From a virus: a stretch of DNA of 12,589 nucleotides. Made by a program: the position numbers and the translations under genes. Below are positions 5,043 through 11,857 of this stretch, one piece after another; position 1 is the stretch's first letter, and the number at the start of each line of letters is the position of its first letter. The DNA lies in UHGV virus genome UHGV-0247912; one strand, given 5' to 3'. The notes under the pieces were generated by a model that made no database searches, had not been told where the DNA came from, and was given only the letters and a program-made list of their open reading frames with translations.

Positions 5043-5060
5043 TATGTTATTTCCTCCGGT

Positions 5061-6179
5061 TTACAAAATGGAAAATTCAGGGTAATAAACAAAGCGCCCG
5101 ATCTCTCCATGATCCTGGCTGTAAATAATAACCGCCGCCAGGCGACGCGACCGCCAGCCGCCATTAGTCGAATAGGCATCCTTACCCGCTAACGTGCCGT
5201 GATACTCAACAACGCCAAGCGATGACTCGATCAGCCGTTGATGATGCCAGTGCCCGCAGTGGGCGTAAACAGCAGCAGACTTGCCGAAATCCTCGCGCCA
5301 GTCAGCTACGCAAGCAGACAATAAATTTTCTGGCTTTTTGATAGTGTGCCCGTGGTGGTAAGCAAGAAATGTTTTGCCGTACTGTGTGTGGTGGACGATA
5401 GCAGGGGACACATCAACCGTCACGCGCGGTTCATCTTCGTAAAAAGCCGCCAGCGCCGCACGTAGCCAAATCATGCCTGACTGATCGTGATTGCCTGATA
5501 ACACCTGGATTTCAACATCTTTATGATTTAACAACATCTTTCCTACCGCCCGCCGTACAGACCGGATCGCCACATAAACAAGTTTTGCGTAGCGACTATC
5601 CTGATCAAGAATATGCCCGCTTGTTGGCGTAACCGGGACCATACCATCAGAATGAAGCAGGTCACCACCGAGAAGTAAGACGGCTTTTTCAGACATCGGA
5701 GCAGCGCCAACGGCATAATCAAAGAAGTTATTTAGCACGCGTTCAGCGATCCCAGTGTCGTAGCTCTCGCCGCATTCAGCTTTATGGGCAAGCGCCCCGA
5801 TATGCAGATCAAACACAGGATAAAGGGCCAGGCTTTTTTGAAAATCAATTTCAGGCACTGGCACAGCCTCCGCGCGTGGTATTTCATCAGTGAAAGCGTC
5901 GCGGGCCGCTTCCATTAGCTGTTCCATTTCTTCGCGGTCACGGGCTGTTTTAATCCAGCGCATGATAACATTGCCGTTCTTATCCACTAGCAACGACTCA
6001 CCATTGACGCCAAAACCAGGCGCGCGGCGTGTTGATAATAAACCCCGTTTCGCCAGTTTTGCGCCCAGGCGTTCGACATTGCGTTTAGACATGCCGTACT
6101 TTTCAGCGATCTGTTTGTACGTTAATCCGTTGTTATATTCAGCGATCAATTGCTCATCACTGATTTTTCTTTGCGACAT
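5061..6179 (-). CDS. HTH domain + calcineurin-like metallophosphoesterase domain protein (372 aa)
   Basis: ATG at 6179 with GGAGGG RBS (the track start at 6203 is an alternative start codon). N-terminal HTH (LTYKQIAEKYGMSKRNVERLGAKLAKRGLL); phosphoesterase-type motifs FDLH, GGDLLHSDG, GNHD, HHGH, GHWHH. Confidence 0.7.
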   Translation of the reverse strand: MSQRKISDEQLIAEYNNGLTYKQIAEKYGMSKRNVERLGAKLAKRGLLSTRRAPGFGVNGESLLVDKNGNVIMRWIKTARDREEMEQLMEAARDAFTDEIPRAEAVPVPEIDFQKSLALYPVFDLHIGALAHKAECGESYDTGIAERVLNNFFDYAVGAAPMSEKAVLLLGGDLLHSDGMVPVTPTSGHILDQDSRYAKLVYVAIRSVRRAVGKMLLNHKDVEIQVLSGNHDQSGMIWLRAALAAFYEDEPRVTVDVSPAIVHHTQYGKTFLAYHHGHTIKKPENLLSACVADWREDFGKSAAVYAHCGHWHHQRLIESSLGVVEYHGTLAGKDAYSTNGGWRSRRLAAVIIYSQDHGEIGRFVYYPEFSIL

Positions 6180-7311: not shown

Positions 7312-8364
7312 TCAAAGAGCGCCACATCGTGTATCACGTAGCGTTTTTGGTTTAAGCAGGAAATCAAGTGTCGCAGTGAAGCCATCGCCGAAGTAAAAAT
7401 CTGAAGCATTGTTTTTGAACGTTTCAAAGTAGGCGACAAAGCCGTTAATGCTTTTGTCTTTCAGGTAGTCAGTGAACGCATAAATCTTGCGTTCAAGATC
7501 CCGATCCAGTTCGGCAGGTGGCAACATGCCATCAAACGTGCTGTTAAATGCCTCCACTACGTCGGCAGCGTTTGCAGTGGCTGACAGTTTGCGCCATTTT
7601 TCAGCATCAGCCAGATACCCATCAAATTTAGTCACCCGGCAAATGTTTATAGGCTTAGGTGTTCCACCACGGCTACGCCATTGCGTTAAAGCCCACTCAA
7701 TCACTAATGTGATCTCATCCTCCGTATACGCTTTACGTGTTTTTGTTTCTGTCAGTAGTTCTACGAATGGCTTAGCATCACGACATTTACACCCTGCCTT
7801 TTCGTTGTAGAAGTCAAGGCAACGCAATGCCGCATCGCTTATCTGAAAGTCACCATCCTGATTAACTTCTTTTCTTTTTATATTTTTCTTTTCTTCTTCT
7901 GTTTCTTTTTCTTCTTCTACTTCTATTTCTAATTCATGACCCTTTCCTGACCCGGTCATGACCCTATCATGACCCTTTGGTGTTGGATTGATTAACTTTT
8001 CTAATTTTAATTGCTCCTTCGCTGTGTTTATGGCGGCCCTGTAAGCGCTTTTAGAAGTCATTGATTGGTCCAGCCTTTTCAATAACTTTAAACAAGTTAT
8101 GTGGCCTTGAGAACATTCAAACAAACCAATTTCGATGAAGTATTTCATCATTTCTTCTATACGTTTTTCAGTAGATCCGACGTTTCGCGCAATGATTCTC
8201 GCGTCATGTCGTAGGTCAAAAGTCAGATTGTGCTGATCTACGTCATAAGTTATTAGTTCGAGGCAATACCAATAAAGCCCGTACCCTTCCAGGCCATAAT
8301 CTAACAAAACGTTTTGAAGTTTTTCATCGCGGTTCGCATCGCTGTCATGCTTAAACCACTTCAT
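7312..8364 (-). CDS. replication initiation protein / replisome organizer (O-like, phage replisome-organizer N-terminal domain type)
   Basis: 350 aa; N-terminus MKWFKHDSDANRDEKLQNVLLDYGLEGYGLYWYCLELI matches the replisome-organizer N-terminal domain pattern; acidic/basic linker; RBS GGAGGG; lies directly downstream of the immunity region. Confidence 0.8.
   Translation of the reverse strand: MKWFKHDSDANRDEKLQNVLLDYGLEGYGLYWYCLELITYDVDQHNLTFDLRHDARIIARNVGSTEKRIEEMMKYFIEIGLFECSQGHITCLKLLKRLDQSMTSKSAYRAAINTAKEQLKLEKLINPTPKGHDRVMTGSGKGHELEIEVEEEKETEEEKKNIKRKEVNQDGDFQISDAALRCLDFYNEKAGCKCRDAKPFVELLTETKTRKAYTEDEITLVIEWALTQWRSRGGTPKPINICRVTKFDGYLADAEKWRKLSATANAADVVEAFNSTFDGMLPPAELDRDLERKIYAFTDYLKDKSINGFVAYFETFKNNASDFYFGDGFTATLDFLLKPKTLRDTRCGAL
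7861..7933. repeat. AT-rich homopyrimidine/homopurine tract next to the iterons (candidate DNA unwinding element)
   Basis: About 70 bp almost entirely C/T on the plus strand (cttcttttctttttatatttttcttttcttcttctg...); encodes the Glu/Lys-rich linker of the initiator. Confidence 0.5.
7934..7977. repeat. four tandem 11-bp iterons (TCATGACCCTT-like), candidate origin of replication inside the initiator gene
   Basis: Plus strand units: 7934-7944 tcatgaccctt, 7945-7955 tcctgacccgg, 7956-7966 tcatgacccta, 7967-7977 tcatgaccctt. Units 1 and 4 are identical; the period is one helical turn. Confidence 0.6.
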
Positions 8365-8367
8365 AGA

Positions 8368-8625
8368 TCATCCCTCCGGCAACATCACTACATAGACATC
8401 ACTGAATGCATCAAGACGACAAACAAATCCTTTATCCATTAACGCGGCGAAGGCATCATGTACCGTATGAACAGGAAGTTCACACATTGCGGCTACTTCT
8501 TTGCGTGATGCATCATGTACCCGTCCTTTGTTATCTGCCTTTTCAGCCAGAGCCATTAAGACAAGTTTTTGAATCGGGCTATTAAGTTTTACGTTCCATG
8601 CTTTACTAATCATGTTTATACTCAT
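8368..8625 (-). CDS. small HTH / winged-helix DNA-binding protein (85 aa), first gene of the rightward-type operon (Cro/CII position)
   Basis: ATG at 8625 with AGGAG RBS (track ORF 8368..8703 starts earlier without an RBS); KLVLMALAEKADNKGRVHDASRKEVAAMCELPVHTVHDAFAALMDKGFV looks like a winged-helix DNA-binding domain. Confidence 0.55.
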   Translation of the reverse strand: MSINMISKAWNVKLNSPIQKLVLMALAEKADNKGRVHDASRKEVAAMCELPVHTVHDAFAALMDKGFVCRLDAFSDVYVVMLPEG

Positions 8626-8733
8626 CGCATTTTCTCCTATGGTTAGAGTGAACGCGCGGGCGGGCATCCCATTAGCATTAGATAGCAGTGACTGACCGCT
8701 CAACAGATCCCGCCGTTGCGTGATATTTGTTTT

Positions 8734-8767
8734 TCGCTTCGCAGCGACACCGGATTTTTAAAGAGCA
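8734..8767 (-). promoter_or_regulatory. candidate nutR-like site (boxA-like plus hairpin) in the minus-strand leader
   Basis: Minus strand reads TGCTCTTTAAAAAT (close to lambda nutR boxA CGCTCTTAAAAATT), then 6 nt, then hairpin UCGCU-GCGA-AGCGA. Confidence 0.3.
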
Positions 8768-8809
8768 TAAGGTAAGTGCCTTTTTGTGCCTTCCGTATCT
8801 TTTTCCTTG

Positions 8810-8929
8810 CGTCTTTGCAAGTATGGCCTTACCTTGTCTGCAAGTTTACAAAATGGAATTTTAAGATCAAGGCTTAAAATACACGTTTTGTGACTTGCAT
8901 CAAACTTTTTGAGGTTATAGGGTAGCGAC
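8810..8929. promoter_or_regulatory. divergent immunity control region (PR-like and PRM-like promoters, candidate operators)
   Basis: Lies between the divergent cI-type gene and the minus operon. Heptamer TGCAAGT at 8816-8822 and 8839-8845 and its complement ACTTGCA at 8893-8899. Possible minus-strand promoter TTGATG (8905-8900), 16-nt spacer, TATTTT (8881-8876). Exact operators and promoters are not resolved. Confidence 0.4.
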
Positions 8930-9577
8930 ATGAAAACAAAATGGTATGACTTAGCAAAGCAGCTCATGCGGGCGCAGGGCATGAGCCAGGATTCACTCGC
9001 GGATCGTATGGGGATAACTAAAGGCGGCCTGTCACACTGGCTGAACGGTCGCCGAGAGCCAAATCTTGAAGATATTGCGCGGATTATGCGCGAGCTTGGT
9101 CGTCGGCAGTTTACTGTTACACATGATGGCATGGTCATTGATGATTCTGTTTCTAATACACTTCAGGCCGTGCCGCCGCGTGATTTAGGTAGTTACCCGG
9201 TTATTGACTGGAAGGACACAGTAAACAATATGGATGACGCAAGGCGTTCAGCATTACGACACGTTACGACTAGCGTTATTTGTTCAGATGACAGTTACTG
9301 GCTGGTTGCCAAAGGTGAATCAATGAACGCGCCGCAGGGGTTGAGCATCCCGGCGGGGACGATGATACTTGTGGACCCGCACGCGCCAGCTATTGACGGC
9401 AAACTGGTTATAGCCCAGCTTGAGGAAGGGCAGATACCGACGTTTAAACAGTTGATTATTGATGGAGGTCAAAGGCTTTTACGTTCGCTCAATCCGCTGT
9501 ATCCGCCAATCCCTATGAATCCAGAATCAAAAATTATAGGCGTGGTGGTTGATGCGAAGATCGTAAACCTGCCATAA
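8930..9577 (+). CDS. cI: cI-type phage repressor (N-terminal HTH, C-terminal LexA/S24 autopeptidase domain)
   Basis: 215 aa; HTH GMSQDSLADRMGITKGGLSHWLNG; C-terminus GESMNAP...TFKQLIIDGGQRLLRSLNPLYPPIP parallels lambda cI ([24 protein letters not shown]) including the catalytic Ser and Lys. Confidence 0.9.
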   Translation: MKTKWYDLAKQLMRAQGMSQDSLADRMGITKGGLSHWLNGRREPNLEDIARIMRELGRRQFTVTHDGMVIDDSVSNTLQAVPPRDLGSYPVIDWKDTVNNMDDARRSALRHVTTSVICSDDSYWLVAKGESMNAPQGLSIPAGTMILVDPHAPAIDGKLVIAQLEEGQIPTFKQLIIDGGQRLLRSLNPLYPPIPMNPESKIIGVVVDAKIVNLP

Positions 9578-9582
9578 ACATT

Positions 9583-9607
9583 AGCCGCCGAATGGCGGCT
9601 TTTCTTT
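9583..9607 (+). terminator. rho-independent terminator after the repressor gene
   Basis: AGCCGCC-gaat-GGCGGCT (7-bp GC-rich stem) followed by TTTCTTT, 6 nt after the stop codon. Confidence 0.65.
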
Positions 9608-9699
9608 GCCTGGAAAACACCAAAACGTAAACAGAAAACGTTATTTATTATTTAAATATCAATGGCATATAAAATATTTTAAAAAAGTATACAAAATGG

Positions 9700-9728
9700 A
9701 TTGACTCGATGTTTTACGGGGCGTATAT
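9700..9728 (+). promoter_or_regulatory. strong sigma70-type promoter (PL-like), AT-rich upstream region
   Basis: -35 TTGACT (9700-9705), 17-nt spacer, -10 TATATT (9723-9728); very AT-rich 9640-9698 (UP-element-like). Confidence 0.5.
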
Positions 9729-9983
9729 TGCGAGTCAAAGGAAGGGCGCAGGTAACAAAAGCAACTTCCTGGCACTTTAAAAATCAGGCTTAACACCTTG
9801 TCAACCGTGGAGTAACTCCCCGATGGGGGACCGAAAGCGGCACTGATAACAAGGCGCATGGGGTGTTTAAAGCGTTACATCCCCCACGAAACCGCACGCA
9901 AGGCGACGAGTCAGCTTGCTTGGAGTGAGCAAGGTCACGCCGGGAACGGCGATGATTGCGGGATTAGTTGAAAGATGTTAAGC

Positions 9984-10021
9984 CGCTCATTAACAATCTG
10001 GTCAGCCGCTGGAAGTGCGGC
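9984..10021 (+). promoter_or_regulatory. candidate nutL site: boxA-like CGCTCATTAACAAT plus boxB-like hairpin
   Basis: CGCTCATTAACAAT (9984-9997) resembles boxA (CGCTCTTA / GCTCTTTAACAA); 7-nt spacer; hairpin GCCGC-UGGAAGU-GCGGC (10005-10021) with a purine-rich loop; sits just upstream of the N-like gene. Confidence 0.5.
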
Positions 10022-10077
10022 AATTAACGAAGATGATTTTTTATTAAGTATCATCAAGGATATACGGAGATCAGATT

Positions 10078-10368
10078 ATGAGCGTTACAATTATATATGG
10101 TAAATGTGATAGCAAAATGAATGCCAGGGAACGCAGAAGGATAAAAAGAGAAAACGAAAGAAAATCATCACCTGCAATCAATAAAACAGACAATGTGGAT
10201 AAAGCTATTCGATTTGCAAACGAGGAAAGATGCAAACCAAATAGCATTAAAGAACGTCGCAAAGGATCAGTAAAATGGTATACGGAAAATGAAAGCGGCA
10301 GCTACTACCACGCAACGCAACCACGCCATTTAGGGGAAAAACCCCTGGATAAAGTCCGCTACCATTAA
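10078..10368 (+). CDS. N: N-like transcription antitermination protein (arginine-rich motif)
   Basis: 96 aa; N-terminus MSVTIIYGKCDSKMNARERRRIKRENERK has an arginine-rich motif like lambda N (MDAQTRRRERRAEKQ) and, from memory, P22 gp24; first gene after the PL-like promoter and nut-like site; RBS GGAG 8 nt upstream. Confidence 0.7.
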   Translation: MSVTIIYGKCDSKMNARERRRIKRENERKSSPAINKTDNVDKAIRFANEERCKPNSIKERRKGSVKWYTENESGSYYHATQPRHLGEKPLDKVRYH

Positions 10369-10398
10369 TACAAAATGTAAACATCCGGAGGTGACATT

Positions 10399-10521
10399 AT
10401 GGTTATTCAGGCGCTTCAATTCAAACTGGCAGTAGCGGAAATGCTTCACGATGCCGAAATGTGGAGCGCCGCGAATAAAGCCTTATACATAGTGTTAACA
10501 GCACGGGAGATTAAATGGTGA
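10399..10521 (+). CDS. small hypothetical protein (40 aa), translationally coupled to erf (Arf-like position)
   Basis: Manual translation: MVIQALQFKLAVAEMLHDAEMWSAANKALYIVLTAREIKW. RBS GGAGGTGA before the ATG at 10399; its stop overlaps the erf start (ATGGTGA). Confidence 0.45.
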   Translation: MVIQALQFKLAVAEMLHDAEMWSAANKALYIVLTAREIKW

Positions 10522-11159
10522 AAACAGAGTTACATAAAAAGCTATGGACGATTCAGCAAACGCTGAACGCGCCGAAAAATCAGCGTAATAATTTTGGTGG
10601 ATATAATTACAGGTCGGCGGAGGATATTTTAGAGGCGGTTAAACCACTGCTTCAAAGTATTACGCTGACTGTAAGCGATGAAATTGTCCTGATCGGCAAT
10701 CGCTATTATGTGAAAGCTACGGCGACGCTAAGCGACGGTGAAGACGAAATAGCGGTAACGGCTTACGCCAGGGAAGAAGAAAGCAAGAAGGGAATGGACG
10801 CAAGCCAGCTAACAGGTGCGACATCAAGTTACGCGCGAAAATATGCTTTGAACGGTTTATTCTGCATTGATGATGCGCGAGATCCTGATACTGACGCATA
10901 CGCTAAGCAGACAGGCCAGCAGCCTCGCCAGCAGAAAAACCCACCAAAACAACAACCACAGCAGCAGAAAGCGCCGCCAAATCCTGATGAAGTATTAGCA
11001 CGTTTCTGTGATGCAGCAGCGAAAGCGCAGGACGCTAACAAGCTGCGTGAAATATTTGGCAAATGCTGGAAATTACTACCGGAAGGATCGGAACATCGAA
11101 TCAAGGCAAAAGATGTTTATGACATCCGGGTAGCAGAGCTTAACGGGGAGATGGGTTAA
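10515..11159 (+). CDS. erf: Erf-family single-strand annealing recombination protein
   Basis: 214 aa; NFGGYNYRSAEDILEAVKPLL...GNRYYVKATATLSDGE...AREEESKKGMDASQLTGATSSYARKYALNGLFCIDDARDPD matches the conserved Erf core (P22 Erf-like); Q/P-rich linker. Confidence 0.9.
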   Translation: MVKTELHKKLWTIQQTLNAPKNQRNNFGGYNYRSAEDILEAVKPLLQSITLTVSDEIVLIGNRYYVKATATLSDGEDEIAVTAYAREEESKKGMDASQLTGATSSYARKYALNGLFCIDDARDPDTDAYAKQTGQQPRQQKNPPKQQPQQQKAPPNPDEVLARFCDAAAKAQDANKLREIFGKCWKLLPEGSEHRIKAKDVYDIRVAELNGEMG

Positions 11160-11578: not shown

Positions 11579-11857
11579 ATGGTTGATTATCTAAAACCGC
11601 CACCACCGCCACGAACAAAAGAGCAAGTATTAAAAGAAGCCCGTGATCAAATCGATCGCGGGCTTTTTTTATGCGGCACGGCAGCGGAACGGATGGCAAA
11701 AAGATTTAGTGACCTGTACGCAAAACAAATATGGTTCGACAACTGGCAGGCAAGTTTTTATCCGCTGCAAAGAAAACCGGATATGCACTGGCCTGAATAT
11801 GTCGATCCACGTATGCGCAAATATCGCGGGCGTATGGGCCAGGTCATTAACGATTAA
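11579..11857 (+). CDS. hypothetical protein (92 aa), proline tract near the N-terminus
   Basis: Continuous with the erf-ssb operon; stop 12 nt before the next gene; weak RBS. No family recognised. Confidence 0.45.
   Translation: MVDYLKPPPPPRTKEQVLKEARDQIDRGLFLCGTAAERMAKRFSDLYAKQIWFDNWQASFYPLQRKPDMHWPEYVDPRMRKYRGRMGQVIND

Follow-up and report, generated by a model that had tools for sequence, protein, structure and literature searches.

The DNA around position 9700 of the window (the whole stretch of 12,589 nt that was analysed) very probably harbours the strong early promoter of an N-like operon in a prophage of the mEpimmI group, with a perfect 8-bp inverted repeat bracketing the promoter being incidental and an invariant 16-mer block just upstream of the −35 hexamer being the likelier control site. 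This joint reading removes a false lead, the repeat, and assigns the sequence to the ordinary early promoter of an already described phage group. The repressor operators of the mEpimmI phages are undefined in the accessible literature, and the 16-mer provides a concrete candidate; together with three promoter–nut modules and a conserved structured block of leader RNA, it appears a more promising subject than the repeat.

Identity and gene context of the locus

The segment is 93.6–99.6% identical to the phages mEp021, mEp010, mEp515 and MagusPhagus (93.6% to mEp021), and several E. coli chromosomes carry prophages 100% identical to it. This DNA identity, together with the synteny of repressor, terminator, nutR1, gp17, erf and ssb, identifies the locus as the early region of a temperate E. 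coli prophage of the mEp021 group (mEpimmI). The mEpimmI phages have been described as temperate coliphages that are Nus-dependent and non-lambdoid, encode a CI-like repressor (Rep021) together with the N-like antiterminator Gp17, and have three nut sites, of which nutR1 was reported upstream of gp17; the mEp021 repressor blocks all six mEpimmI phages that were tested (PMC11893012).

The order of the elements in the window is repressor gene, terminator, promoter, N-like gene, erf and ssb, and in mEp021 the operon extends on into the nin genes, Q and the lysis genes. The CI-like repressor gene (8930–9577, + strand), a homologue of the Rep021 gene, is an open reading frame with Pfam and PHROG matches and with HTH_3 and Peptidase_S24 domains. 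It adjoins the promoter region on the same strand, upstream; its product matches the lambda repressor (3bdn, E=1.4e-20), and the same gene (gp15) is annotated as the repressor in mEp021. A G+C-rich hairpin at 9583–9600, found by our terminator scan (TERM_1) and annotated in mEp021 (t1), is the predicted terminator of the repressor transcript. The first gene of the following operon is the gp17 homologue (10078–10368, + strand), an open reading frame whose product matches PHROG 271 (anti-termination protein N-like, E=1.3e-13). The nutR1 site on the + strand, with boxA GCTCATTAACAAT at 9985–9997 and the boxB hairpin GCCGC-TGGAAGT-GCGGC at 10005–10021, was recognised by comparison with relatives lacking an insert in the leader, by compensatory changes in boxB and from the published description (PMC11893012). 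The designation "PL-like" that the earlier note had given to the promoter is thus borne out by its surroundings: the CI-like repressor gene precedes it on the same strand, and a nut site, an N-like gene, erf and ssb come after it.

Some other elements of the neighbourhood may be mentioned here. The first gene of the leftward operon (8368–8625, − strand) encodes 85 amino acids and corresponds to gp14 of mEp021, annotated as MarR-like; its match is to phage replication initiators, in their winged-helix N-terminal part (PHROG 4617, E=1.8e-22), rather than to Cro, and no obvious Cro homologue adjoins the repressor gene. Downstream of ssb, at 11609–11672, there is a sub-threshold match to the Rfam family Thr_leader (28.8 bits versus a gathering score of 55), which is limited to the terminator-hairpin part of the model (AAGCCCG...CGGGCTTTTTTT) and is probably an ordinary intrinsic terminator.

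The early promoter

The best match to a sigma-70 promoter anywhere in 8300–10600 consists of the −35 hexamer TTGACT (9701–9706, + strand) and, 17 bp beyond it, the −10 hexamer TATATT (9724–9729, + strand), together agreeing with the consensus at 10 of 12 positions. For comparison we collected 47 viral-contig loci encoding the repressor, 44 of which contain the promoter region, representing 35 distinct sequences including the window. The −10 hexamer and the length of the spacer are unchanged in all 35 and the −35 hexamer in 34 of them, while the sequence of the spacer drifts, its upstream half (9709–9718) being the most variable part of the region. Near-consensus hexamers at a 17-bp spacing, conserved in this manner, are what one expects of a sigma-70 promoter. 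Its geometry predicts a transcription start at 9736 on the + strand, 7 nt past the −10 hexamer, with the purines at 9734 and 9737 as further possible starts.

Upstream of the hexamers, the + strand is markedly rich in A+T at 9640–9700 (85%, versus 54% for the window), resembles an UP element and, judging from its composition, may act as one; it includes a perfect palindrome, TAAAATATTTTA, at 9670–9681. The sigma-70 RNA polymerase of E. coli would recognise TTGACT and TATATT with the aid of this A+T-rich region, and transcription starting near 9736 would produce a leader of ~340 nt containing nutR1, followed by gp17, erf and ssb. We found no definition of a promoter or a repressor operator for the mEp021 group in the accessible literature, including PMC11893012.

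The inverted repeat and its fate among relatives

The perfect 8-bp inverted repeat with a 22-bp gap that the earlier note had described around this promoter does exist, with its arms one base further to the right than that note had placed them. In the left arm, TTGACTCG (9701–9708, −35 to −28 relative to the predicted start), six of the eight bases are those of the −35 hexamer, and two more base pairs complete the octamer; the right arm, CGAGTCAA (9731–9738, −5 to +3), falls in the discriminator and start-site region. The arms, whose centres are 30 bp apart, bracket the spacer (17 bp) with the −10 hexamer, and the repeat can be extended neither inward nor outward.

Perfect 8-bp inverted repeats with a spacer of at most 30 occur in the window in 20 registers (~13 separate places), compared with 7.7 ± 3.5 in dinucleotide shuffles, and are therefore common in this DNA. 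When the two hexamers were fixed and the remaining bases drawn from the local composition, some 8-bp repeat bracketed the −10 hexamer in ~0.7% of simulated trials, a frequency calculated after the repeat had been noticed. The repeat exceeds chance only weakly. Within the OR region (8700–8930) the octamer is not matched even when one mismatch is allowed, and its matches throughout the window are at chance level (9 observed versus 9.1 expected); its absence from OR upholds two points of the earlier note, namely that it does not recur there and that it is not the main repressor operator.

All eight pairs are kept in 21 of the 35 distinct sequences (60%) and in most loci overall, seven pairs in 11, six in two and five in one, leaving 14 distinct relatives, mEp021 included, with only 5–7 of the eight pairs. 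The changes are one-sided. Those in the left arm are T to C at 9701, C to G at 9707 and G to T or A at 9708, the variants of this arm being CTGACTCG, TTGACTCT, TTGACTCA and TTGACTGG; those in the right arm are G to A at 9734 (nine distinct sequences), T to G or C at 9735 and C to A at 9736, with the variants CGAATCAA (nine distinct sequences, among them mEp021), CGAGGCAA and CGAGCAAA. Between the −10 hexamer and +7, no base varies as much as position 9734, which differs in nine of the 34 distinct relatives. In a count over 16 distinct 51-mers, no pair had changed on both sides, covariation scored 0.000, and pairing was disrupted at six of the eight positions by at least one sequence. Since mEp021, the archetype studied by experiment, carries TTGACTCT and CGAATCAA (6/8 pairs), the perfect repeat is an allele of the lineage of the window only; among four further E. 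coli prophages, three likewise carry CGAATCAA.

The left arm is conserved because the −35 hexamer lies in it. The arms are broken freely and never compensated among relatives with the same repressor, and the repeat is therefore most likely a coincidence; the most suitable description is an incidental allele carried by a strong early promoter of the ordinary kind. It would then be no working part of the promoter, its left arm amounting to the −35 hexamer plus two bases and its right arm to ordinary discriminator and start-site sequence that probably became complementary by happenstance in this lineage.

A scan of species-representative genomes revealed no more distant relatives, and a search of viral contigs with Gp17 retrieved the same phage group only. 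The sole heteroimmune relatives (L046–L048), with repressors 37–38% identical, carry another gene downstream of that for the repressor and therefore offer no equivalent promoter for comparison.

Alternative roles for the repeat

The earlier note had proposed a site for a dimeric regulator, and the octamers might be pictured as half-sites of a dimer, or of a dimer of dimers, clamping the promoter from −35 to +3 and blocking RNA polymerase. A perfect 8-bp repeat sitting exactly over the −35 hexamer and the start site, its retention in 21 of the 35 distinct relatives, and a distance between centres of 30 bp, which is about three helical turns and would put the arms roughly on one face of the helix, all speak for such a clamp. 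Nevertheless, we consider it very unlikely. The arms are not co-conserved, with one to three one-sided changes in 14 of the 35 distinct homoimmune relatives and none of them compensated, and mEp021, with its 6/8 pairs, has common immunity with other members of the group. The −35 hexamer accounts for the conservation of the left arm, the right arm includes the base that varies most in the core promoter region, and the octamer is missing from the other early control region (OR). The half-sites bound by helix-turn-helix dimers are typically spaced ~10 bp apart, and 30 bp is far from this value. Co-conservation, recurrence at other promoters and a spacing of one helical turn, the marks of an operator, are thus all missing from the repeat.

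The second suggestion, a structure in the nascent RNA, founders on the position of the left arm, which at −35 to −28 lies upstream of the start site and is wholly absent from the transcript of this promoter, so that this transcript cannot form the hairpin. The repeat might still act as a hairpin in RNA that passes the repressor terminator, affecting read-through or stability, or as a DNA cruciform or hairpin when the promoter melts; indeed, for the 51-nt segment the folding energy is −7.7 kcal/mol as DNA (z = −4.0 versus shuffles) and −13.0 kcal/mol as RNA. Such roles are, however, extremely improbable, given that both arms are present only in transcripts escaping the strong terminator at 9583–9600, that no covariation maintains the pairing, that the hairpin is lost from the minimum-energy fold of the mEp021 allele, and that 8-bp arms with a 22-nt loop form cruciforms poorly. 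Just as little probability attaches to the idea of an overlapping antisense promoter whose −35 hexamer is a second TTGACT, contributed by the right arm on the − strand (9738 to 9733), creating two promoters face to face. The − strand does have TAAAAC 16 nt downstream of this TTGACT, but TAAAAC is without the essential final T, belongs to the most variable stretch of the region (9709–9718) and was not reported as part of any − strand promoter by our scan, and in many relatives the change of 9734 from G to A turns this −35 hexamer into TTGATT. There is also a very slim chance that, in the sub-lineage with all eight pairs, the repeat is a recently acquired site for an accessory regulator, or a DNA or RNA hairpin, tuning the N-operon promoter and lost from mEp021-like alleles. 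Sequence by itself leaves this little room for a lineage-specific role because the 51-nt segment folds better than its shuffles.

Two further candidates around the right arm were considered and set aside. The motif TGCAAGT, conserved in three copies within the OR region, might be a half-site with TGCGAGT of the right arm as a fourth copy; mEp021, with TGCGAAT at this place, keeps just one of the three OR copies exactly. Homology between the start-site regions of the leftward and the N-operon promoters, which would have assigned a role to the right arm, was likewise rejected (alignment score 20, versus 22 ± 4 for shuffles).

An invariant 16-mer as a candidate control site

Control of the early promoter would more probably be exerted via the invariant block at 9682–9700 than via the repeat. 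The 16-mer AAGTATACAAAATGGA (9685–9700, + strand), a candidate binding site of a regulator, occupies −51 to −36 and abuts the −35 hexamer; positions 9682–9698 are, unlike their flanks, invariant in all 35 distinct sequences. Motif comparison identified a second copy, AAGTTTACAAAATGGA, in the OR region (8842–8857, + strand). The 16-mer is the only motif common to the promoter and the OR region, the match with 8842–8859 extending to 16 of 18 positions, which was equalled by 0–2% of shuffles. The window contains six matches to the 16-mer with three mismatches or fewer, versus 0.34 expected. In mEp021, sites with at most one mismatch occur in exactly three places (11079, 11922 and 20142), corresponding to the OR region, the N-operon promoter and a position just upstream of nutR2; four further copies in mEp021, all intergenic, have two mismatches each.

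Read on the opposite strand (TCCATTTTGTAWACTT), the 16-mer falls within the leftward early promoter upstream of nutL, TTGATC(8870–8865)-16-TAAACT(8848–8843) on the − strand, where it supplies the −10 hexamer and the last part of the spacer. The copy before nutR2 of mEp021, which is invariant in five phages, likewise covers the −10 hexamer and the adjoining spacer end of a promoter-like sequence, TTGTTC-16-TATACT, located 15 nt before boxA. The leftward promoter and this pre-nutR2 site can be aligned over 40 nt with a score that no shuffle reached. Each of the three published nut sites may thus have its own upstream early promoter. The 16-mer takes an activator-like position (−51 to −36) at the N-operon promoter and lies over the −10 hexamer at the other two.

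Given its recurrence and invariance, the simplest reading of the 16-mer would be a common protein-binding site, and one DNA-binding protein, most plausibly the CI-like repressor, would bind its copies. At −51 to −36 such a protein could activate or repress the promoter, or its site could coincide with the UP element. As in CI operators, the motif is present at all early promoters and invariant in homoimmune phages, but it is devoid of their two-fold symmetry, with only the 6-bp core GTATAC being palindromic; this asymmetry would be unusual for a CI-type dimer. It seems to us more likely that the asymmetric 16-mer lets one phage protein coordinate three early promoter–nut modules than that the repeat serves an accessory regulator.

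We found no dyad common to the copies of the 16-mer and, with half-sites of 6–7 bp and gaps of 0–11, no convincing classical palindromic operator in either control region, only A+T-rich dyads, namely ATTTTAAG-N7-CTTAAAAT in the OR region and the palindrome TAAAATATTTTA ahead of the N-operon promoter. The OR dyad was rejected as it is not conserved among homoimmune relatives, and ACAAAATGGTATGACT (8936–8951), which matches 9691–9706, falls within the beginning of the repressor coding sequence (MKTKWYD) and is regarded as a coding coincidence.

The principal competitor of a protein-binding site is a reading of the 16-mer on the − strand (TCCATTTTGTATACTT) as the core of a divergent leftward promoter, with TATACT (9691–9686) as the −10 hexamer, which would produce a short RNA antisense to the terminator and to the 3′ end of the repressor gene. 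TATACT fits the −10 consensus at five of six positions, and the same 15–16 nt provide the −10 hexamer, with the spacer end before it, in both the leftward promoter and the pre-nutR2 site. However, no −35 hexamer is conserved at the appropriate place (AACATC here; TATGTC, TATACA and AACACC in relatives), there is no TGn of an extended −10 hexamer, and the T tract of the terminator is poor on the − strand. We therefore consider a divergent promoter rather unlikely and favour a protein-binding site.

Two more occurrences of the motif deserve a brief mention. In mEp021 (L049, 20070–20200), the predicted terminator t4 lies between two conserved copies of the 16-mer in inverted orientation. In the window, a further copy, CGGTTTACAAAATGGA (5057–5072, + strand), with 14 bases identical to 8844–8857, is found at the junction of two leftward replication genes and is also present at the equivalent junction of mEp021 (6060).

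The OR region and the repressor start

The OR region (8839–8930) contains a 61-bp imperfect palindrome with 27-nt arms (8839–8865 and 8873–8899) that are 70% complementary. It also contains a possible weak promoter, TTGCAT(8895–8900)-17-TAGGGT(8918–8923), whose transcripts would begin with the A of the repressor start codon ATG (8930). A start at this position would possibly give a leaderless repressor mRNA, as in the case of lambda PRM. The ribosome-binding site annotated for the repressor gene in mEp021, GGGCG, is implausible.

The heteroimmune relative L048 (2400–2503), whose repressor is 37% identical and has the same N-terminus (MKTKWYDLAK), carries three copies of GTATACAT plus GTTTACAAAAT in its OR region. 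Its TATAAT placed exactly 7 nt before the repressor ATG suggests a leaderless repressor mRNA here too. The AAGTATACA core common to both groups hints that their operators are related.

The gp17 leader and its nut site

Most relatives share a 198-nt block (9787–9984) in the gp17 leader, situated between a degenerate boxA-like sequence, GCACTTTAAAAATCAGG (9772–9788), and the boxA adjoining boxB, GCTCATTAACAATCTGG (9985–10001), the two being identical at 13 of 17 positions. The block is absent from nine viral-contig loci (in the case of mEp013, mEp044 and mEp554, no more than 64% of this segment is matched); relatives without the insert have the canonical TGCTCTTTAACAAT, then 7 nt and the same boxB. 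It occurs in one copy per genome, is confined to this phage group and is near-invariant in relatives whose flanks differ by 5–10%.

A 13-nt stem (9787–9799 with 9972–9984) closes the block, and the leader as a whole (9736–10090, block included) has a fold z of −4.2; a search of the leader against Rfam gave no family match. Within the block, a hairpin at ~9913–9931 exhibits three compensatory pairs in three E. coli prophages. The changes in this hairpin are non-conservative in the annotated 37-aa open reading frame gp16 (9858–9971), and their combination with compensatory pairs therefore points to an RNA constraint rather than to a protein.

The boxB hairpin itself has been replaced in STEC308, RM9245 and E21845 (L050–L052, ~1420–1436), which have GCTAC-TGAAAT-GTAGC instead of GCCGC-TGGAAGT-GCGGC. 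The changes in the stem (GCTAC/GTAGC) are compensatory, and the new loop is that of nutR2 of mEp021.

Comparison with known systems

With the dimer operators of the CI, Cro and LexA type, the repeat has in common a perfect dyad overlapping core promoter elements. Such operators have half-site centres about one helical turn apart and recur at every regulated promoter, whereas the centres of the present repeat are separated by 30 bp, and it is restricted to a single promoter and not conserved among homoimmune phages.

The closest counterpart of the locus is the early rightward region of mEp021 (gp15, terminator t1, nutR1 and gp17), with which it shares the gene order, both hexamers, the 17-bp spacer and the 16-mer; mEp021 differs in having TTGACTCT and CGAATCAA instead of the perfect arms.

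The parallel with the PL–OL/nutL/N region of lambda extends to the location of the promoter downstream of a cI-type repressor gene on the same strand, to an N-like antiterminator gene that comes first and is preceded by boxA and boxB, and to the recombination genes that follow. Because the N-like gene comes first, the promoter functionally corresponds to lambda PL, although the nomenclature of the mEp021 nut sites would make it rightward. Unlike lambda PL–OL, it displays no visible array of three 17-bp pseudo-palindromic operators; its recurring motif is asymmetric and its leader is ~340 nt long. The operon of mEp021, furthermore, runs on to nin, Q and the lysis genes, as that of lambda PR does and in contrast to the PL operon.
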